Below are positions 1,369-36,212 of a stretch of DNA of 37,097 nucleotides, piece after piece; the first letter of the stretch is position 1, and each line of letters begins with the position of its first letter. The stretch is from a virus (taxonomy: Duplodnaviria > Heunggongvirae > Uroviricota > Caudoviricetes). A program made the position numbers and the translations under genes. The stretch is taken from IMG/VR virus record IMGVR_UViG_2563366877_000001, one strand, 5' to 3'. Below the pieces are notes generated by a model. The model was not told where the DNA came from. It saw nothing but the letters and a program-made list of their open reading frames with translations, and made no database searches.

Positions 1369-1444
1369 GCCGATATAGCTCAGTTGGTAGAGCAGCGCAT
1401 TCGTAATGCGAAGGTCGTAGGTTCGACTCCTATTATCGGCACCA
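1369..1444 (+). tRNA. thrW: tRNA-Thr (anticodon CGU)
   Basis: 76-nt sequence GCCGATATAGCTCAGTTGGTAGAGCAGCGCATTCGTAATGCGAAGGTCGTAGGTTCGACTCCTATTATCGGCACCA with cloverleaf, anticodon CGT and CCA end; known integration target of P22/SfV-type integrases. Confidence 0.93.
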
Positions 1445-5145: not shown

Positions 5146-5927
5146 GCTGCCACCTTCTGCTCAGTGGCTTTCTGTTTCAGGAATCCGAGAGCTTTCACTG
5201 CTTCGACCTGTGTCAGTTCTGACGATGCGCGAATGTCGCGGCGAAATATCTGGGAACAGAGCGGCAATAAGTCGTCATCCCATGTTTTATCCAGGGCAAT
5301 CAGCAGAGTGTTAATCTCCTGCATGGTTTCATCGTTAACCGGAGTGATGTCGCGTTCCGGCTGACGTTCTGCAGTGTATGCGGTATTTTCGACAATGCGC
5401 TCGGCTTCATCCTTGTCATAGATACCAGCAAATCCGAAGGCCAGACGGGCACACTGAATCATGGCTTTATGACGTAACATCCGTTTGGGATGCGACTGCC
5501 ACGGCCCCGTGATTTCTCTGCCTTCGCGGGTTTTGAATGGTTCGCGGCGGCATTCATCCATCCACTCGGTAACGCAGATCGGATGATTGCGGTCCTTGCG
5601 GTAAATCCGGCATGTGCAGGATTCATTGTCCTGCTCAAAGTCCATACCATCAAACTGCTGGTTTTCATTGATGATGCGGGACCAGCCATCAACGCCCACC
5701 ACCGGAACGATGCCGTTCTGCTTATCAGGGAAGGCGTAAATTTCTTTCGTCCACGGATTAAGGCCGTACTGGTTGGCGACGATCAACAATGCGATGAACT
5801 GCGCATCGCTGGCATCACCTTTAAATGCCGTCTGGCGAAGAGTGGTGATCAGTTCCTGTGGGTCGACAGAATCCATGCCGACACGTTCAGCCAGCTTCCC
5901 TGCCAGCGTTGCGAGTGCTGTACTCAT
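5142..5927 (-). CDS. bet: recombination protein Bet (Red-beta)
   Basis: 261 aa, near-identical to lambda Bet; overlaps the exo start as in lambda. Confidence 0.95.
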
Positions 5928-5932
5928 CCGTT

Positions 5933-6229
5933 TTATACCTCTGAATCAATATCAACCTGGTGGTGAGCAATGGTTTCAACCATGTACCGGATGTGTTCTG
6001 CCATGCGCTCCTGAAACTCAACATCGTCATCAAACGCACGGGTAATGGCTTTTTTGCTGGCCCCGTGGCGTTGCAAATGATCGATGCATAGCGATTCAAA
6101 CAGGTGCTGGGGCAGGCCTTTTTCCATGTCGTCTGCCAGTTCTGCCTCTTTCTCTTCACGGGCGATCTGCTGGTAGTGACGCGCCCAGCTCTGAGCCTCA
6201 AGACGATCCTGAATGTAATAAGCGTTCAT
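5933..6229 (-). CDS. gam: host nuclease inhibitor Gam (short form)
   Basis: 98 aa, [21 protein letters not shown]...; AGGAG Shine-Dalgarno 7 nt upstream; in-frame stop 14 codons upstream excludes a long form. Confidence 0.95.
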
Positions 6230-10937: not shown

Positions 10938-11107
10938 CGGGCAAAGAGGCAATTATTCATTATCTGGAGACGCACAAGAGCTTCTGTGCGCCGGACGTTG
11001 CTGTGACAACAGGTGTGACATTAACCAGCATAAATCAGGCTGCGGCAAAAATGGCGCGGGCAGGAATCCTGGTCATTGATGGTAAGGTCTGGCGAACGTT
11101 TGTTTAA
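10934..11107 (+). CDS. ren: Ren-like protein, C-terminally truncated (57 aa)
   Basis: Not in ORF track. MTGKEAIIHYLETHKSFCAPDVA... matches the lambda Ren N-terminus; AAGGAG Shine-Dalgarno; ends early relative to the 96-aa lambda Ren. Confidence 0.6.
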   Translation: MTGKEAIIHYLETHKSFCAPDVAVTTGVTLTSINQAAAKMARAGILVIDGKVWRTFV

Positions 11108-11253
11108 CGGTTAGCTACTCAGGATGATAGGGCGGGGCAAGTGAGTATGAAGCGGATTTTCAGGAATGCCATCAGAGTTTGGAAATAAAGTGGGTTTTCT
11201 AGTGGCAAGAGACTTGATAATATTTAGTTCTTTGAATCCAAGGAGATAGGGTT

Positions 11254-11748
11254 ATGAGAAAATTTATTTTAGCCTTTGTTATAAGTGCCTCGTTTACAGC
11301 AAATGCTGGTGTAGAGAAGTTAGGGCCGTGGATAACAAAGTCTGAGATAAATAAAATGACTGACCAGACTGACTTTGTGGCTCTTAATTTATCACCAGAT
11401 TCATATAACAAAGCAGGTACTGATCGTGCAACTTCACTGGTGTTGCGTTGTAGTGATAACAAAACAGATGCCTATTTATCATTCAATGATTATATGGGTT
11501 CGGACAACCCAAGAATTACAGTGCGGTTAGATGGCGGAAAGCCGGTCAAGAGTGTTTGGGGAGGTGGGGAAGGCGGTGATTCTGCATTTGCTCCACAACC
11601 AATACAATTTATAAAGACCTTGGCTAAGCATAAAAAAGCTATTTTTGGGTTTGAACCTTATGGATCAACTATGCAAGTAGTTGAGTTTGACTTGTCTGAG
11701 ATTGATAAGGTTGTGGAAAAAATTTCACAGTCTTGCAATTGGAAATGA
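11254..11748 (+). CDS. exported hypothetical protein (moron)
   Basis: 164 aa with cleavable signal peptide (MRKFILAFVISASFTANA); AT-rich codon usage unlike neighbours; followed by a terminator. Confidence 0.6.
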   Translation: MRKFILAFVISASFTANAGVEKLGPWITKSEINKMTDQTDFVALNLSPDSYNKAGTDRATSLVLRCSDNKTDAYLSFNDYMGSDNPRITVRLDGGKPVKSVWGGGEGGDSAFAPQPIQFIKTLAKHKKAIFGFEPYGSTMQVVEFDLSEIDKVVEKISQSCNWK

Positions 11749-11767
11749 CAAAAAAATTTCATATGAA

Positions 11768-11790
11768 CCCAGTTGGCGCTGGGTTTTTTA
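11768..11790 (+). terminator. rho-independent terminator
   Basis: CCCAG-ttggcg-CTGGG stem-loop followed by TTTTTT directly after the exported-protein gene. Confidence 0.6.
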
Positions 11791-12791
11791 TTTCAGTAGC
11801 CAATAATGCATTCAAAATCTCTTACTTGAGAAACGGCCTATTTGAGATTTCAGTCGTGGCAGGATGATCAGTTGATTCGAGTATTGACGCATTTGCGTTC
11901 GGAGCGATTACAGTAGATTGTAAATAATAATGAGAAACACATAGCCACATAGCCACCCCGTGGTATTGAAACCATATAATGTTGGATTTGAAAACAGATC
12001 TTTTCCCATGTATTAATAACTACATCCCCGCGAGTAATTCAAAAAGGAGGGCCCAATTTTGTCCGAGTTTTTGTATTCCCCCGCATGCCGCTGCGGAGCA
12101 CTACATCTGAGTGTCTGACTAGGGGATAAAATTAGACTGGATAGTGAGAAGAAAGTGGCGCGCTAGGCTGTGCCGAGTGCTACCAGTACACCTTGGGGGT
12201 GTGCAGCTTTCGCCGAGACTGTAGTGGGTATCGGTTAATGCACGAAAAACCGAGAGGTCAGACAACCAATTTGCCGTAGGATTGTTTCCGGTGCGATACC
12301 GGTCTACTAACTGAAAGCAATGCGAAAAAGCATAAACTCGGTCCTTCAGTCGCCCTACACACTATTTACTAAGAAGGGCTGAAGCATGGATACAATTATT
12401 ACATGGATGGGAGATCGTCTGTTGGGGGGACACAAAAATCCGATCTGCGGCAGATGGCGATCACTGGATTAACTTCCGCGATTTGTTCAACAATTTTGTA
12501 CACTGAAAAATTAAAACATGGTGAGCCTATTAACCCAAACGAAGAAGAAAAACTTTATAGGCTTTGGTATGAAGGAAACGCTTGAAAGAATAAAGCACAA
12601 TTAAAACCTTTGATTTGCGATAATCAACTTGCCATAATTAAGTAATCGGAGCCTGAACAACTCCGGTGACTTCTGCGCTAAACGGGGACGTTTATGCGCA
12701 CATACAATCCAAACTATCTTCTCCTTTCACAGATGCAGAAATGCACCTGCAATTCTTTGCATCTAGCGTTTGACCTCTGCGGAGGTGAAGC

Positions 12792-14059: not shown

Positions 14060-14196
14060 TGTTTGAGTTTAATATGGCAGAACTTCTTCGCCACCGCTGG
14101 GGGCGTCTGCGCTTATATCGTTTCCCCGGTTCTGTTTTGACCGATTACCGGATACTGAAGAATTACGCCAAAACACTGAAAGGAGCTGCCGCATGA
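14056..14196 (+). CDS. ylcG: small protein YlcG
   Basis: 46 aa, [27 protein letters not shown]..., matches DLP12 YlcG; not in ORF track. Confidence 0.7.
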
Positions 14197-14882
14197 ATAC
14201 CCAATATTTACAGTATGTCCGCGAGCAACTCATTGTGGCTACTGCTGATTTGAGCGGAGCAACGAAAGGCCAGCTTGAAGCCTGGCTGGAGCATGCACAA
14301 TTTGATACTGGTACATATAAACGAAAGAAGCCGCGCATTCTGGATGAGGTAACGGGCAGGATGATTACGCTGGATAATACGCCGATTTCTGGTAAGCAGT
14401 CGTACGCAAAAGGTTCATCCATTGCACTGGTCAGCCAGGTTGAGTTCTCAACCTCGTCATGGCGCCGCGCGGTTCTGTCTCTCGAAGAACATCAGAAAGC
14501 GTGGTTGCTGTGGAGTTACAGCGAAAGTGTTCGCTGGGAACATCAGGTCACCATAACGCAGTGGGCATGGAGCGAGTTTAAGACTCTGTTGGGTACCAGG
14601 AAAATTGCAGGTAAAACACTGGAACGTTTGAAGAAGTTGATCTGGCTGGCGGCACAGGATGTGAAGAACGAGCTGGCAGGGCGTAAGACCTATGAATACC
14701 AGGAGCTGGCATCACTGGTGGGAGTGACATCAAAAAACTGGTCTGAGACATTCACTGAACGCTGGGTTGCAATGAAGCACATTTTTCTACAGCTTGATAG
14801 CGAAGCTTTATTGCTTCTAACGAGAACACGTTCAAAACAAAAGGCGACATTTTTACAGCAAAATATTGCAAAGCTGGATTAA
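14193..14882 (+). CDS. putative late-gene antiterminator (Q-like), assigned mainly by position
   Basis: 229 aa directly after rusA/ylcG and before a promoter-like element and the lysis cassette; family not confirmed. Confidence 0.45.
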   Translation: MNTQYLQYVREQLIVATADLSGATKGQLEAWLEHAQFDTGTYKRKKPRILDEVTGRMITLDNTPISGKQSYAKGSSIALVSQVEFSTSSWRRAVLSLEEHQKAWLLWSYSESVRWEHQVTITQWAWSEFKTLLGTRKIAGKTLERLKKLIWLAAQDVKNELAGRKTYEYQELASLVGVTSKNWSETFTERWVAMKHIFLQLDSEALLLLTRTRSKQKATFLQQNIAKLD

Positions 14883-14955
14883 AAAGCATATATTTCATGT
14901 AAATCTGATATTCTGCCAATGTTGTATGTGCAACTGTTCGTGGATGTAGTAAGGG

Positions 14956-14984
14956 TTGACTATCCAATTTCTAGGATATAGATT
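14956..14984 (+). promoter_or_regulatory. candidate late promoter pR'
   Basis: TTGACT (14956-14961), 17-bp spacer, TAGATT (14979-14984), downstream of the Q-like gene; comparable to lambda pR' TTGACT-17-TAAATT. Confidence 0.3.
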
Positions 14985-15103
14985 TTTCTGCAATAAAGGT
15001 TTTGGGAATGAAGGGGCGGCTCCCAAAAGATAACCGCCAAGTTGGTAACTTCGACTCGATAATTGGTCTGGGACTCCAACCGTGTCGGCTGAGAGGTCGA
15101 CGT

Positions 15104-15907
15104 CTATTTCTTTTTGGGAAGTGGATACTTTAAGCTAACGTTTTGAGTTTCTATATCTCGTGGCCCTCGAGTTTTATCATAAAAATACCAGATATTAAAT
15201 TTTCTCTCAGTGTGCCATGTATCATATTGCAAGTGATCCCAGCCTAAATATGAAGCAACATAGTTTGATACTCTTATTTTGGCTTCAGATGAAGCTTTTC
15301 CTTGATATGCGCACATAACCGCACCTAAGAAAAAATCGGCTAGCTGAATGTTTTCAGATGCTTTAGAGTCTTTTGTCACTACACTGCTGATTATCCCTTT
15401 ACGACCAAATTTTCTATTCAATATGTTATTGGCAATAACATTTAGTTCTTCATCAGCCTTTTTATAACGAGATGCGATAGGATCAACTTCAATCCTGAAG
15501 TAACTGTCTCTTTCAGGGTGTGCAGAAATTACAGAGCTAATTTTTGTGGTAATGAGATTTGTGAAGTGCTTTCTCCTTGCCAGGTCATAATCTCCATTAT
15601 GAAATGCCTTATTTACTATTGATTTTTCAACCACGATACAATGAAAAGCTAGCCAAGGAACTCTAAAGAATAAGTCGATCAGCTCAAGATAAAATTCAGA
15701 GTATCTTTTTGAATGGGCTTTTTGCCATTTTATTTCTTCATAAAAACCATGCTTTCTGCGTAGTTCTCTGATTAGTTGACAGAAATCCCCACGGCGTTGG
15801 TACTTCATCCACAGACTGCCAAAGCCGTAGAAACGTTGTCCATCAATGCCAGATTCATCGCAAGCAATATGCCAAATTAACTTACCAATGTTATCTTTTT
15901 CTGTCAT
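15104..15907 (-). CDS. hypothetical protein, AT-rich moron antisense to the late operon (candidate defence/accessory gene)
   Basis: 267-aa ORF on the opposite strand between the Q-like gene and the holin; visibly AT-rich; N-terminal HIACDESGIDG and later QLADFFLGA motifs; no similarity to phage structural or lysis proteins. Confidence 0.65.
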   Translation of the reverse strand: MTEKDNIGKLIWHIACDESGIDGQRFYGFGSLWMKYQRRGDFCQLIRELRRKHGFYEEIKWQKAHSKRYSEFYLELIDLFFRVPWLAFHCIVVEKSIVNKAFHNGDYDLARRKHFTNLITTKISSVISAHPERDSYFRIEVDPIASRYKKADEELNVIANNILNRKFGRKGIISSVVTKDSKASENIQLADFFLGAVMCAYQGKASSEAKIRVSNYVASYLGWDHLQYDTWHTERKFNIWYFYDKTRGPRDIETQNVSLKYPLPKKK

Positions 15908-16123
15908 CTGCTGGTAATACTCTTAGTCCTTAAAGCATAGTATTTAACCATACATGTAACTCATTGATAAAGATCGTTTTATGCAAGTTGCATGTATTGG
16001 TTTTTGAAGGCCATTCGCTTGGTTATAAGATTTTTTAGTTATTTTGAATTGACTGTTTATAACAATATTTCCCATGTAAGTTTTTAATCATTAGCGTCCC
16101 GGCCTTTCGTCGGCGGCGAAACA

Positions 16124-16441
16124 TTGGCTATTCATATGCACGAAAAAGAGAGCCTTGCCGGAGCGTTCTGGCTCGTTTTGCTGATCATCGCAGGTTGGGG
16201 CGGTCTGGTCCGCTACCTGATAGATGTGAAGCAGAGTAAAGCAACGTGGAGTTGGATAAATGCTCTGGCTCAGATAGTGGTATCAGGATTCACCGGTGTT
16301 ATTGGTGGCCTGATCAGCATCGAAAGTGGATTCAGTATTTACATGATTCTCGCGACAGCGGGGATTAGTGGTGCGATGGGTTCGGTTGCACTGACGTACT
16401 TCTGGGAACGACTGACAGGGGTGAAAAATGCAAAATCTTAA
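16124..16441 (+). CDS. holin
   Basis: 105 aa with predicted transmembrane helices, immediately upstream of the endolysin; two in-frame starts (MAIHMHEK) reminiscent of holin/antiholin dual-start motifs. Confidence 0.7.
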   Translation: MAIHMHEKESLAGAFWLVLLIIAGWGGLVRYLIDVKQSKATWSWINALAQIVVSGFTGVIGGLISIESGFSIYMILATAGISGAMGSVALTYFWERLTGVKNAKS

Positions 16442-17393: not shown

Positions 17394-17687
17394 TTATTGT
17401 GAGCAATACACCCGCGCTTCCAGCGGAGTATAAATGCCTAAAGTAATAAAACCGAGCAATCCATTTACGAATGTTTGCTGGGTTTCTGTTTTAACCACAT
17501 TTTCTGCGCCGCCACAAATTTTGGCTGCATCAACAGTTTTCTCCTGTCCAATTCCCGAAACGAAGAAATGATGGGTGATGGTTTCCTTTGGTGTTACTGC
17601 TGTCGGTTTGTTTCCAACAGTAAACGTCTGTTGAGCACATCCTGTAATAAGCATTGCCAGAGCGGCAGAAAACAACATTTTTTTCAT
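17394..17687 (-). CDS. bor: Bor lipoprotein (serum-resistance moron)
   Basis: 97 aa from MKKMLF...; matches lambda Bor (ITGCAQQTFTV...EARVYCSQ). Confidence 0.9.
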   Translation of the reverse strand: MKKMLFSAALAMLITGCAQQTFTVGNKPTAVTPKETITHHFFVSGIGQEKTVDAAKICGGAENVVKTETQQTFVNGLLGFITLGIYTPLEARVYCSQ

Positions 17688-18212
17688 CTTATTATCCTGC
17701 ATTGTTAAAAACGGCAGAATCCTATGTGACAACAATTAAACGATAGTTAAATGGATTGATGAAAATTAAAACTATATAGGTGTACGGTCAGACTATTGGA
17801 GGTAGTCAGGATTTGAATGTCAGTCTGTTGTCGGCATTCTGGCAATGCAATTTGGATAAAGCGGGGATTAAAAAGATAGAGGCGAGCCGGTCAGGTAGAA
17901 ATGAATCAGGCTCAAAGTGAAGCGGAAAAGGTCTGTGGTACAAGCTGATGCAGCCATAATTACAGCCTGATGATTTGTGGAATGAAACATGTTGAACCTC
18001 CTTAATTGATGTTATTCGAGTGATGAAGGCATTCTGTCCTTCTATAGTGTCCAGTAAATCAAACAGGAAACTTGTCCAACGTGTTGGACAAGCCTCTCCA
18101 TTAGTGAGTTGTATTGATCACAACTCTACAAAGAATTCATTACTGGGTAGATGAAAATAGTTTCACGATGAATGGAGGAGGCTATGTCGGTGGCTTCTTC
18201 ATTGGAGTACAT

Positions 18213-18563
18213 ATGCCATCACGAATCCCAAAAGCCTGCCGTGTTCGTGGCTGCCGCCATACCACCACAGACCCGTCAGGCTATTGTGAAAGCCACAAAA
18301 GCGAAGGCTGGAAGCAATACAAGCCAGGACAATCCCGTCATCAGCGCGGTTATGGTTCGAAGTGGGATGTTATCCGCGTGCGTGTGTTGAAGCGTGACAA
18401 AGGACTGTGCCAGTTGTGCCTGCGTGCCGGTGTGGTGCGTGAAGCGAAAACCGTTGACCACATCATCCCTAAAGCGCATGGCGGCACTGATGCCGACAGT
18501 AATCTGCAGAGTCTGTGCTGGCCGTGTCATAAGGCGAAGACGGCCCGTGAACGGTTGAAGTAA
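18213..18563 (+). CDS. HNH endonuclease (terminase-associated)
   Basis: Cys-rich zinc-binding HNH motif (CQLCLRAG...VDHIIPKAHGG...CWPCHKAKT); GGAG Shine-Dalgarno before ATG 18213; precedes the terminase genes as in HK97-like phages. Confidence 0.8.
   Translation: MPSRIPKACRVRGCRHTTTDPSGYCESHKSEGWKQYKPGQSRHQRGYGSKWDVIRVRVLKRDKGLCQLCLRAGVVREAKTVDHIIPKAHGGTDADSNLQSLCWPCHKAKTARERLK

Positions 18564-33524: not shown

Positions 33525-36212
<2,688 letters not shown>

Follow-up and report, generated by a model that had tools for sequence, protein, structure and literature searches.

Putative mobile cassette of a lambdoid prophage pairing a predicted DUF3800 nuclease gene with a convergent lambda-6S-type RNA

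The lambda 6S RNA, a 194-nt transcript that runs from pR' to tR', is the closest described relative of the RNA reported here. Short pR'-tR' RNAs arise as a general by-product of antitermination control, and one of them, StxS, is a processed RNA that acts as a regulator in trans (PMC7547250). On the protein side, the DUF3800 family is recognized by an N-terminal DE motif and a C-terminal QxxD motif (PMC7736814). For DUF3800 genes, associations with 11 or more other structured RNAs are known, and the RNA can be located on either side of the gene and in either orientation (PMC5737381). The literature also describes DUF3800 as an effector of type VII retrons and, fused to TPR, as an accessory protein at Cas12a2/a3 and type VI-F loci. 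The literature searched contained neither an experimental test of a DUF3800 protein nor biochemical data on one. Two further lines of work on defence loci are of relevance. A set of 145 PDC systems, candidates by the authors' own account, is defined by location within BREX, DISARM and type I RM loci (Payne et al. 2024 preprint), and the gpA-to-portal (gpA-gpQ) site of P2 is a defence hotspot that holds old/tin (PMC9122126).

Here, we describe a DUF3800 gene in a lambdoid prophage. The window, i.e. the whole stretch of viral DNA that was analysed, comprises 37,097 nucleotides. The earlier note on this DNA had described an AT-rich gene that runs antisense to the late operon as cargo in the slot between Q and holin, and all three points hold. 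The open reading frame is on the minus strand with Q and holin both on the plus strand (Table 1), and in the RefSeq annotation of near-identical E. coli prophages, Q is likewise followed by DUF3800(-), holin, endolysin and Rz. The exact GC content is 36.4% for the coding sequence and 37.2% for the interval 14883-16123, versus 51.4% for the whole window, 47.5% for Q and 49.1% for the holin gene. This interval is the lowest-GC stretch of 1,241 bp in the window, with values as low in 0.3% of sliding windows, and GC3 of the gene is 0.31 versus 0.51-0.52. The same Q and holin are found without the gene in at least about 1,200 E. coli genomes, and cassette-less sister phages are far commoner than carriers.

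The gene is compositionally foreign, as had been proposed, and the truly foreign segment is slightly narrower than the 14883-16123 of the earlier note. Homology to the cassette-less phage of JJ1886 ends at 14926 and restarts at 16091, and the insert replaces 232 bp that contain two terminator hairpins in the cassette-less phage. The 44 nt 3' of Q, in which a candidate pR' is located, are common to cassette-less phages such as JJ1886, and we infer that the promoter overlapping the Q stop codon is the pR' of the resident phage. Judged from these sequence comparisons, the segment 14927-16090 is a 1.16-kb mobile cargo cassette of a lambdoid prophage. Similar to the late-region morons of lambdoid phages (stx downstream of tR', bor after Rz), it is cargo of foreign composition with its own promoter; a bor gene is present in the window, too, at 17394-17735 on the minus strand. 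In contrast to stx and bor, the DUF3800 gene is antisense, overlaps the late-leader terminator and encodes a predicted nuclease instead of a toxin or surface protein.

Table 1. Coordinates of the cassette elements and of the flanking resident phage genes in the window.
Feature	Position	Strand	Details and basis
Q antiterminator gene (resident phage context)	14193..14882	+	PF06323, 314 bits; "bacteriophage antitermination protein Q" in near-identical prophage
Candidate resident late promoter pR'	14866..14894	+	TTGCAA-17-TATATT, overlaps Q stop codon; consensus scan
Foreign insert (cassette)	14927..16090		1,164 bp: sRNA promoter, 6S-type RNA, DUF3800 gene and DUF3800 promoter
Cassette promoter for RNA	14956..14984	+	TTGACT-17-TAGATT, predicted start ~14991; inside insert; consensus scan
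Lambda-6S-type structured RNA core	14998..15103	+	Covariance model R1, 109.5 bits
RNA pseudoknot	15000-15007 with 15021-15028	+	Cognate versus non-cognate pairing test
RNA stem P4	15015-15019/15034-15038	+	
RNA stem P2	15040-15045/15076-15081	+	
RNA stem P3	15053-15055/15066-15068	+	
GNRA-capped hairpin, last of RNA core	15082-15103	+	
U-tract CTATTTCTTT after last hairpin, terminator-like site	15104..15113	+	Terminator scan
DUF3800 gene	15104..15907	-	267 aa, ATG start; RNase H-like nuclease fold; candidate catalytic D17, E18, D142, D191
DUF3800 promoter (predicted)	15942..15975	-	Extended -10 TGGTTAAAT 15942-15950; -35 TTATCA 15965-15970; invariant GATC 15972-15975
13-bp palindrome ATGCAAgTTGCAT	15981..15993		Present; no evidence of function
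Holin gene, LydA-type, first lysis gene (context)	16124..16441	+	PF16083; RefSeq annotation of near-identical prophages

On the 5' side of the gene, a single block is conserved among 35 divergent cassettes. We infer that this block is the DUF3800 promoter, with a spacer of 17 nt between the -35 element and the extended -10 element. The palindrome further upstream had been put forward as a possible regulator site. It is present at the given position, but it is not conserved across homologous cassettes and its occurrence is at chance level: the window contains 23 palindromes of the same kind, and a shuffled copy of the intergenic region gives one with P=0.07. A function as operator was thus rejected.

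Contrary to the earlier note, the gene is not lone: a lambda-6S-type structured RNA, which has a promoter of its own, is joined to it tail-to-tail. The core of this RNA is the sole match in the window to the covariance model R1, which was built from DUF3800-linked copies only. A single copy is found per locus, located 0-33 nt from the DUF3800 stop codon, and its conservation is above that of the coding sequence in 35 of 35 comparisons. The structure shows clear covariation: 95.7% of cells are paired, and 10 of 18 pairs are compensatory versus 0-5 in slid controls, and the observed score was reached by none of 500 shuffles. For the pseudoknot, the own loop is the best partner of each tail in all five columns, and RNA copies without DUF3800 supply extra pseudoknot variants. 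The single-sequence folding energy is unremarkable (z = -0.99). A sigma-70 match of 8-10/12 is located at a conserved distance in about 35 of the 38 unique loci of the main clade, although the hexamers differ, and the -10 end lies 7-18 nt before the RNA element. Downstream, the last hairpin is followed by the U-tract, whose complement encodes the C-terminal Lys residues and the stop of DUF3800. Hairpin and U-tract together are the sole terminator-like signal between pR' and holin, and the U-tract contains a median of 8/14 T in DUF3800-linked copies versus 2/14 in DUF3800-less copies.

Our main reading places the RNA on the late (plus) strand. A 3' UTR of the DUF3800 mRNA that has a 4-bp P1 stem and an "invariant 10-nt loop" was rejected as the main reading because the wobble counts (31 A.C versus 3 G.U when read in DUF3800 sense), the GNRA stem, the conserved promoter position and the lambda RNA all favour the late strand. 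Read on this strand, the "loop" folds into a longer stem capped by a GNRA tetraloop, and the MFE is -10.4 versus -3.8 kcal/mol. An alternative 5' pairing from RNAalifold was discarded, since it rests on invariant columns and clashes with the covarying P1 and P2. A tRNA or tRNA-like element was considered (the search core is T-arm-like), and ARAGORN finds none in the element or in 59 DUF3800-less copies. The RNA is also no attC recombination site, as it is a multi-helix element with a pseudoknot and without R''/R' cores; attC-like repeats occur, among the homologs, in marine ones only. No Rfam family matches the RNA of the window at the gathering threshold or at E<=10, nor the RNAs of 12 homologous loci at E<=1.

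In lambda, R1 matches the late strand at 44612-44715 with 67.9 bits (E=2e-18), corresponding to +26 to +129 of the RNA made from the pR' TTGACT-17-TAAATT and ending at tR'. The core of the cassette RNA, with pseudoknot, P4, P2/P3 and GNRA hairpin, is by this match a homolog of the lambda 6S late-leader core. Across lambdoid phages, the lambda 6S core is a conserved pseudoknotted structure that covaries clearly, and Rfam contains no family for it. Both RNAs share the strand, the place after Q and a near-identical promoter. They differ in the segments around the core. The cassette copy does not contain the qut/pause segment of about 20 nt, and its own promoter is not a pR' of the Q-utilisation type; the -10 to P4 distance is 30 nt versus 50 nt in lambda and 49-53 nt in the leader copies, and AACGAT-type or other leader segments are absent. 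The qut-like AACGAT motif itself was rejected as a general marker of leader copies, being confined to the lambda-type minority as expected with different Q families. In lambda, a separate tR' follows further on, and the leader copies in general have no U-tract after the core hairpin and a tR' further downstream, whereas the cassette copy ends at the core hairpin and the U-tract of the nuclease Lys codons and no separate downstream tR' hairpin is found in the window. In addition, the cassette copy lies downstream of another, resident promoter, and its type is found in P2-like phages, too.

The DUF3800-I to -XI, drum and skipping-rope RNAs (Weinberg et al. 2017, PMC5737381) accompany the same protein family with DE and QxxD motifs. 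As in these systems, the RNA is located beside the gene, here in convergent orientation, and as in several of them the last hairpin is terminator-like. The cassette RNA matches no Rfam family among them (e.g. RF02969, RF02968) and is instead the homolog of a phage late leader that is widespread without DUF3800.

In the Q-to-holin slot, the DUF3800 gene occurs with Q genes of three unrelated families and holin genes of four, and it is antisense in every case. P2-like prophages and phage Chuche contain the cassette between gpA and portal. A megablast search of the cassette against isolated phages returned nothing; with the RNA, Chuche and SF6-like phages were matched in the "distant" search mode only. 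Among the matches listed in an IMG/VR scan, about 55% of 6S-type cores have no adjoining DUF3800, and these cores are late leaders after Q. At least 59-64 full-length copies without DUF3800 follow Q genes at a distance of 50-111 nt and precede holin genes, and lambda and the P22-like SF6 contain the RNA without the gene (P22 gave no match to the RNA). Such copies would be expected if the protein were a stand-alone accessory nuclease beside a 6S-type leader/terminator, coupled to it by shared termination only. The pair would then have spread as a block by co-inheritance, with the conserved RNA serving as homology arm for mosaic-phage recombination. The general formation of short pR'-tR' RNAs during antitermination (PMC7547250) is in line with this account. 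Further, the RNA was not found with homologs at 60-68% identity (Vibrio, Shewanella, Alteromonas and others), some of which are lone integron-type cassettes; the protein therefore needs no such RNA in cis. Finally, the divergent DUF3800-linked RNAs cluster with DUF3800-less leaders, their nearest relatives, which makes a single fusion event unlikely. The RNA of the L130-149 clade has a lambda-type pR' and a strong tR' upstream of it, and an own promoter is not obvious.

Four observations stand against mere hitch-hiking. P2-like prophages without Q or pR' retain the RNA at full score in the covariance model (101-107 bits) together with a promoter, and the P2-type lineage has a specific compensatory A-U to G-C change that preserves the pseudoknot, which indicates selection on the RNA there. 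The DUF3800-linked copies share derived features that set them apart from the leader copies: the promoter is 20-22 nt closer, there is no qut segment, and the hairpin is followed by a U-tract. The RNA is carried by 60 of 60 homologs at 69% protein identity or above (69-100%) on several backbones. DUF3800 genes pair with structured RNAs across phyla (PMC5737381). We therefore consider hitch-hiking possible rather than probable. As a general caveat on gene-RNA linkage, adjacent sequences are co-inherited trivially.

The protein matches PF12686 (DUF3800) with E=5e-11 and 43.8 bits (gathering cutoff 21) over residues 16-197, which bears out the resemblance that had been suspected from the sequence; this domain is present in 120 of 120 homologs among the matches listed. 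The N-terminal CDESG motif contains D17 and E18 and the QLADFFLGA motif contains Q188 and D191, and these four residues are invariant in the 41-sequence family alignment. Both motifs had been pointed out correctly, but the second one is C-terminal and not central, because it starts at residue 188 of 267. The protein has an RNase HII-like fold with the acidic site D17-E18 ... D142 ... Q188xxD191. Likeness to RNase HII/HIII is confined to this fold, with an identity of 9-12%: there is no NCBIfam match, and a profile search of PDB sequences found no RNase H. A negative hhalign comparison with RNase HII used an approximate sequence of this enzyme and is unreliable. Membership in the housekeeping RNase HII/HIII family, which would have argued against an accessory gene, was thus rejected at the sequence level. 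Given fold and acidic site, the DUF3800 protein is most likely a metal-dependent nuclease, predicted to act on RNA or RNA-containing duplexes.

Its genomic associations may point to immunity. In PADLOC, the protein matches the PDC-M04A model (PDLC04353) with E=3.7e-35 over positions 6-227 of 232, i.e. gene A of the PDC-M04 candidate (Payne et al. 2024) at nearly full length. PDC-M04 is named as a multi-gene system, whereas no neighbour family occurs here in more than 25 of 140 loci and PADLOC gives no match for Q, holin or the small ORFs over the RNA; a conserved protein partner was not found in these loci. In P2-like prophages, the cassette occupies the old/tin hotspot, and some homologs are found in integron-cassette-like contexts. 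By association, through this match, this hotspot and these contexts, it is plausible that the cargo gene serves in anti-phage defence or in another accessory function, as had been proposed. The domain, its RNase H2-like fold and its pairing with a non-coding nucleic acid component, there of an immune system, are shared with type VII retrons and with Cas12a2/a3 and type VI-F loci. In contrast to these systems, there is no reverse transcriptase, TPR domain, cas gene or CRISPR array nearby, and the partner RNA is a phage leader homolog. The reverse transcriptase and msr/msd of a type VII retron are likewise absent: the neighbours are Q, holin and lysis genes, and the neighbour clusters contain no reverse transcriptase.

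An alternative would be a toxin-antitoxin-like system for addiction or abortive infection, in which a toxic nuclease is neutralised by an abundant, unstable structured RNA. The RNA could bind the protein (type III-like) or pair with the overlapping 3' end of the mRNA (type I-like), and a phage that shuts off host transcription would thereby release the nuclease. The analogy is provided by ToxI, an RNA antitoxin with a pseudoknot. The convergent genes with overlapping 3' ends, the pseudoknotted RNA with its strong constitutive-type promoter, the nuclease fold and the strict linkage in enterobacterial elements would fit. However, close homologs exist as lone genes without RNA and count against an obligate toxin, and many phages contain the same RNA with no nuclease to neutralise. 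In ToxIN-like type III systems, the RNA antitoxin is encoded as tandem repeats that precede the toxin gene within a shared operon; here, a single RNA copy is located downstream in convergent orientation, and the L130 clade RNA shows no obvious promoter. We regard this mode of action as unlikely.

Taken together, we slightly favour the view that the locus is a mobile cassette of a DUF3800 nuclease and a convergent lambda-6S-type RNA, expressed in lysogeny for phage exclusion, with the RNA as partner of the protein. The cassette would have taken the place of the resident tR' terminator region and brought in two convergent genes with overlapping 3' ends. Transcription of DUF3800 would start at its own extended -10 promoter and run against the late operon, and a structured RNA of about 120 nt would be made on the late strand from a lambda-pR'-like promoter without qut/pause segment. 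The last hairpin, together with the U-tract from the complement of the final Lys codons, would act as terminator. Both the cassette promoter and the resident pR' would then give rise, in the lysogen, to short RNAs that end at the nuclease stop codon, with the nuclease expressed convergently to them. Upon induction, Q-modified polymerase would read through and cross the nuclease gene in antisense, and we propose that the nuclease is thereby silenced while the phage late genes are made. Nuclease expression in lysogeny would benefit host and prophage together, most likely through the exclusion of other phages, and the 6S-type RNA may be a regulator, ligand or decoy of the nuclease.

A function in lysogenic conversion or phage regulation outside defence, with the nuclease processing late-leader/6S or other RNAs and tuning late or host genes, appears very improbable. 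Processed pR'-tR' RNAs can regulate in trans, as StxS does (PMC7547250), and the nuclease gene is physically coupled to an RNA of this type. However, the cassette occurs in hotspots of the P2 type, which are dedicated to exclusion genes, as well as inside BREX/DISARM/RM loci, and the antisense orientation suggests switch-off, not use, during late transcription. A more specific form of the exclusion reading is that the lambda-6S-type RNA fold itself is the ligand of DUF3800. The prophage, of lambdoid or P2-like type, would cut or recognise the conserved late leader of superinfecting lambdoid phages and thereby block their late genes, its own qut-less copy would be a decoy, inhibitor or assembly cofactor, and Q-driven antisense transcription would switch the system off in lysis. 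We put this forward as a speculative and rather doubtful proposal.

If the 6S fold is indeed the ligand, this would be the first function for the 50-year-old lambda 6S core and for the class of DUF3800 genes with RNA. DUF3800 is widespread and recurs in immune contexts, including type VII retrons, Cas12a2/a3, type VI-F and BREX/RM-embedded candidates. The locus described here places a DUF3800-RNA pair into E. coli prophages with a lambda 6S homolog as the RNA, and the pair is therefore testable in the best-developed system of phage genetics. If the defence reading holds, the Q-holin slot of lambdoid prophages would join the known defence hotspots, and placing a defence gene in antisense beyond the late terminator would represent a simple design for self-protection.

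In place of tR', the locus carries a mobile cassette of two genes: one encodes an RNase H-like DUF3800 protein, the other, convergent with it, a 6S-type RNA, and their 3' ends overlap. The earlier note had pointed to an AT-rich gene antisense to the late genes in the Q-to-holin slot. That observation is confirmed, and its interpretation as foreign defence or accessory cargo holds in part. The ORF is encoded opposite to both Q and holin, and a 99.8%-identical E. coli prophage in RefSeq has the same gene order, with the gene annotated as 'DUF3800 domain-containing protein'. The window as a whole has an exact GC content of 51.4%, the coding sequence 36.4% and the interval 14883-16123 37.2%, the lowest value for a 1.24-kb stretch anywhere in the 37 kb. 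GC3 is 0.31 in the DUF3800 gene compared to 0.51-0.52 in Q and holin.

Features of the window and of one other cassette-bearing prophage
Feature	Position	Strand	Remarks
tRNA gene	1369-1441	+	Rfam, 71.8 bits; near left end
164-aa protein gene	11254-11748	+	Signal peptide; borderline VasI match
Q antiterminator gene	14193-14882	+	PF06323, 314 bits
Candidate resident pR', TTGCAA-17-TATATT	14866-14894	+	Within part common to JJ1886
Cassette RNA promoter-like site, TTGACT-17-TAGATT	14956-14984	+	Inside insert
6S-type RNA (R1 match)	14998-15103	+	Single copy in window
U-tract CTATTTCTTT	15104-15113	+	Directly after last hairpin; terminator-like site
DUF3800 gene	15104..15907	minus	267-aa ORF, ATG start
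DUF3800 extended -10, TGGTTAAAT	15942-15950	minus	Conserved upstream block
DUF3800 -35, TTATCA	15965-15970	minus	17-nt spacer to -10
GATC	15972-15975		Nearly invariant; just upstream of -35
LydA-type holin gene	16124-16441	+	PF16083; followed by endolysin, then Rz/Rz1
Bor lipoprotein gene	17394-17735	minus	PF06291, 106 bits
HNH endonuclease gene	18114-18563	+	PF01844; directly upstream of small terminase subunit
isrC Hfq-binding sRNA, full length	34584-34706	minus	RF01387, 150 bits; near right end
C4 antisense RNA, a1/b1 target, isrK	L003 9267-9506	minus	Rfam, 47-91 bits

The gene is foreign antisense cargo, as the note had proposed. Among complete E. coli genomes (5,426), only 92 have the cassette, and cassette-less relatives are far commoner, with about 1,200 or more genomes carrying the same Q and holin around a shorter spacer. 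In the alignment with JJ1886, homology ends at window position 14926 and restarts at 16091, which defines an insert of 1,164 bp (14927-16090). It takes the place of 232 bp in which two terminator hairpins are evident, probably representing the resident tR'; the pR' candidate is assigned to the resident phage because it lies in the shared part. No conserved protein neighbour was found in 140 homologous loci (best family 25/140), and in enterobacterial prophages the gene stands antisense between Q genes that belong to three unrelated families (PF03589, PF06530, PF06323) and holin genes that belong to four. The sole conserved block upstream of the gene is promoter-like. The 13-bp palindrome at 15981-15993, suggested as a regulator site, does exist, but it is one of 23 of its kind in the window, arises in the shuffled intergenic region with P=0.07 and is not conserved among homologous cassettes, which speaks against that role. 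The GATC is a Dam site kept in nearly all 35 aligned cassettes and hints at methylation-sensitive expression.

Several further features were noted. The bor gene, also antisense and lower in GC, is a second moron and lies just past the lysis cassette, as in lambda. The stretch at ~11000-12600, between the replication and nin regions, is also AT-rich and compositionally foreign; the 164-aa protein encoded there scores 26.7 bits against VasI of type VI secretion (cutoff 26.5). The tRNA gene possibly marks the prophage attachment region, and the HNH-terminase pairing is usual for HK97-like packaging modules. L003, with its C4 RNA, is a Pantoea prophage that also bears the cassette.

The protein is an ordinary DUF3800 member (PF12686, E=5e-11, 43.8 bits, cutoff 21), in line with the resemblance noted earlier. 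DE and QxxD are the defining motifs of the family (PMC7736814). The CDESG and QLADFF motifs are present, and D17, E18, Q188 and D191 are invariant columns in a 41-sequence alignment. PADLOC already lists it as PDC-M04A, a candidate system only (E=3.7e-35, almost full length); it matches PHROG 3732, a function-unknown group, and no NCBIfam model. The family is a tight single-domain group of ~265 aa and 55-87% identity, ranging over Enterobacterales, Vibrio, Shewanella, Alteromonas and Myxococcota. An AlphaFold model from 41 homologs is confident (pLDDT 90.3, pTM 0.89); no solved structural relative was detectable by sequence, and the predicted fold is consistent with earlier published statements that DUF3800 is RNase H2-like. 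The protein is a predicted nuclease. The gene type itself is known though uncharacterised, and our literature search found no experimental study of any DUF3800 protein.

Contrary to the note, the gene is not a lone one: a structured RNA adjoins its stop codon. These ~100 nt share 84-96% identity where the proteins are only 70-87% identical, and RNA exceeds coding sequence in 35 of 35 comparisons (means 83.3% and 70.8%). The structure, first drawn by eye and tested afterwards, has P1 as a terminal hairpin, P2 around P3, a hairpin that varies, P4 as a stem of invariant sequence (GGCGG/CCGCC) and a pseudoknot joining the P4 loop with the flanking tail. When the loci are aligned with MAFFT alone, 89% of cells pair, compared to 30-52% with slid partners; 13 pairs show double-sided changes (4-6 in slid controls), and none of 500 shuffles attained the observed score. 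A model-guided alignment covers 66 distinct sequences; being fitted to the tested structure, it somewhat favours it. Here 95.7% of cells pair, compensatory changes occur in 10 of the 18 pairs, over 162 cells, and covariation scores 0.335, while slid partners reach no more than 0.077. The own loop is the best partner of each clade's tail in 5/5 columns and 4/5 rows. Pseudoknot pairs are unrelated between clades (UUUUGGGA/UCCCAAAA, GAGAUGG/CAUCUC, CUAU-CCAG/CUGG-AUAG), and copies lacking a DUF3800 neighbour add UAACAAG/CUUGUUA and GAGUUAGGG/CCCUAACUC. The evidence for the proposed fold is comparative; single-sequence folding energy is not unusual (z = -0.99). No Rfam family matches the RNA, though published DUF3800 motifs are in Rfam. 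R1, a covariance model built only from DUF3800-linked copies, detects the RNA exactly once in each locus. A weak second match (23.7 bits, E~1e-3) lies ~3.5 kb from the cassette in the prophage of a Pantoea symbiont (L004/L100 1392-1473, minus).

We assign the RNA to the late-operon strand. Four features speak for it and against a first reading in which the RNA formed the 3' UTR of the nuclease transcript. Of the non-Watson-Crick cells, 31 are A.C and 3 G.U in nuclease sense; the A.C cells become G.U wobbles on the plus strand. The apparent invariant loop becomes a longer stem with a GNRA cap (GAGA, GUGA or GGGA), its single variable base being the N. A sigma-70-like promoter ends 7-18 nt ahead of the element in ~35 of 38 unique main-clade loci, constant in position while its hexamers vary. 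The terminator-like U-tract is the complement of the nuclease stop and final Lys codons. Mean MFE is -10.4 kcal/mol on this strand versus -3.8 in nuclease sense. Against this assignment, one invariant terminal P2 pair is G.U only in nuclease sense.

The RNA is kin to lambda 6S. R1 scores 67.9 bits (E=2e-18) against the late strand of lambda J02459 at 44612-44715 (L274 813-916). This corresponds to +26 to +129 of the RNA that begins after pR' (TTGACT-17-TAAATT) and stops at the tR' hairpin ~194 nt on. The match sits in the classical 6S RNA, of ~194 nt and without known function (PMC7547250). An IMG/VR scan with the invariant core gave at least 120 loci, at least 46 fused to DUF3800 and at least 59-64 without it. 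The latter, checked and rejected as tRNAs, are full-length elements that lie 50-111 nt past a Q-type gene, either of PF03589 or of an unassigned family that occupies the Q position after NinG/RusA, and ahead of holin and endolysin genes; one is in the isolated P22-like phage SF6 (L271 2467-2568). The element is missing from P22 itself and from the JJ1886-type phage. Leader copies leave 49-53 nt between -10 and P4 (lambda 50), room for a qut/pause segment, whereas DUF3800-linked copies leave 28-34 nt (window 30). A U-tract after the GNRA hairpin is absent in leader copies (median 2/14 T) and present in linked ones (8/14). From this spacing and terminator we conclude that the cassette RNA is a stripped-down 6S gene, in which a promoter resembling pR' but lacking qut precedes the structured core and transcription ends at the core's last hairpin. 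The core's pseudoknot, P4, P2/P3 and GNRA hairpin are conserved across lambdoids (L153-L270, SF6), with strong covariation among phages of differing Q families, and Rfam holds no family for this pseudoknotted structure.

Linkage varies with protein identity. The RNA accompanies the gene in 60/60 loci at ≥69%, in 17-18 of ~41 at 60-69%, every one a prophage with all 22 marine genomes of the band negative, and in 0/32 below 60%. The pair also occurs in P2-like prophages between replication gene A (PF05840) and portal/terminase genes, and at the same position in the isolated phage Chuche; this is the old/tin defence hotspot (PMC9122126). In these phages without Q or pR' the RNA keeps its promoter, a full model score (101-107 bits) and a lineage-specific compensatory A-U to G-C pseudoknot change, which argues for selection together with the nuclease. 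Hitch-hiking of the two genes is a rival that we regard as rather unlikely. Several facts speak against coupling: about half of the 6S-type cores, among the matches listed, lack an adjacent nuclease; marine homologs, several integron-cassette-like, lack the RNA; divergent linked RNAs (L128, L130, L144) group with leaders; and the L130-L149 clade RNA stands behind a lambda-type pR' and tR' with no obvious promoter of its own. That the RNA and protein work together is a tentative reading, just short of even.

In L130-L149 the pR' (with AACGATGGG) and a strong late-strand terminator (AAACCCGC...GCGGGTTTTTT) that may be bidirectional precede the RNA, at ~5900-5960 per locus. Marine homologs in Colwellia, Psychromonas, Vibrio and Ferrimonas (L012, L016, L018, L020, L021, L022) resemble gene cassettes of chromosomal integrons, because an RYYYAAC core at the DUF3800 end is followed, within ~100 nt past the stop, by an imperfect repeat of attC type that has GCGTTA at its end. 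L265 (6287-6387) has a main-clade-type RNA of the L110 sequence class with no DUF3800 gene alongside, which may reflect cargo loss or replacement.

In a lysogen, short plus-strand RNAs from the resident pR' and the cassette promoter would end at the U-tract, and the nuclease would be produced from its own promoter, most likely excluding other phages. Upon induction, Q-modified polymerase would pass this site and transcribe the nuclease gene antisense en route to holin, shutting the nuclease off. The 6S-type RNA could act as regulator, ligand or decoy. A functional nuclease cargo gene is very probable, and anti-phage defence as its purpose is evenly balanced. A TA-like module appears improbable, and a regulatory RNA-processing role for the predicted nuclease more improbable still.

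Pairing of a DUF3800 gene with structured RNA is already known in general (PMC5737381). Three things are new in the sources searched, the Weinberg 2017 supplement aside: the partner RNA itself, the identification of this RNA with the core of lambda 6S, and its derived form (without qut, and with a terminator shared with the gene's last codons) along with the strictness of its linkage in lambdoid and P2-like prophages of enterobacteria. The 6S-type RNA raises the interest of the locus beyond what the note had seen in it, and makes it easily testable in E. coli and lambda.
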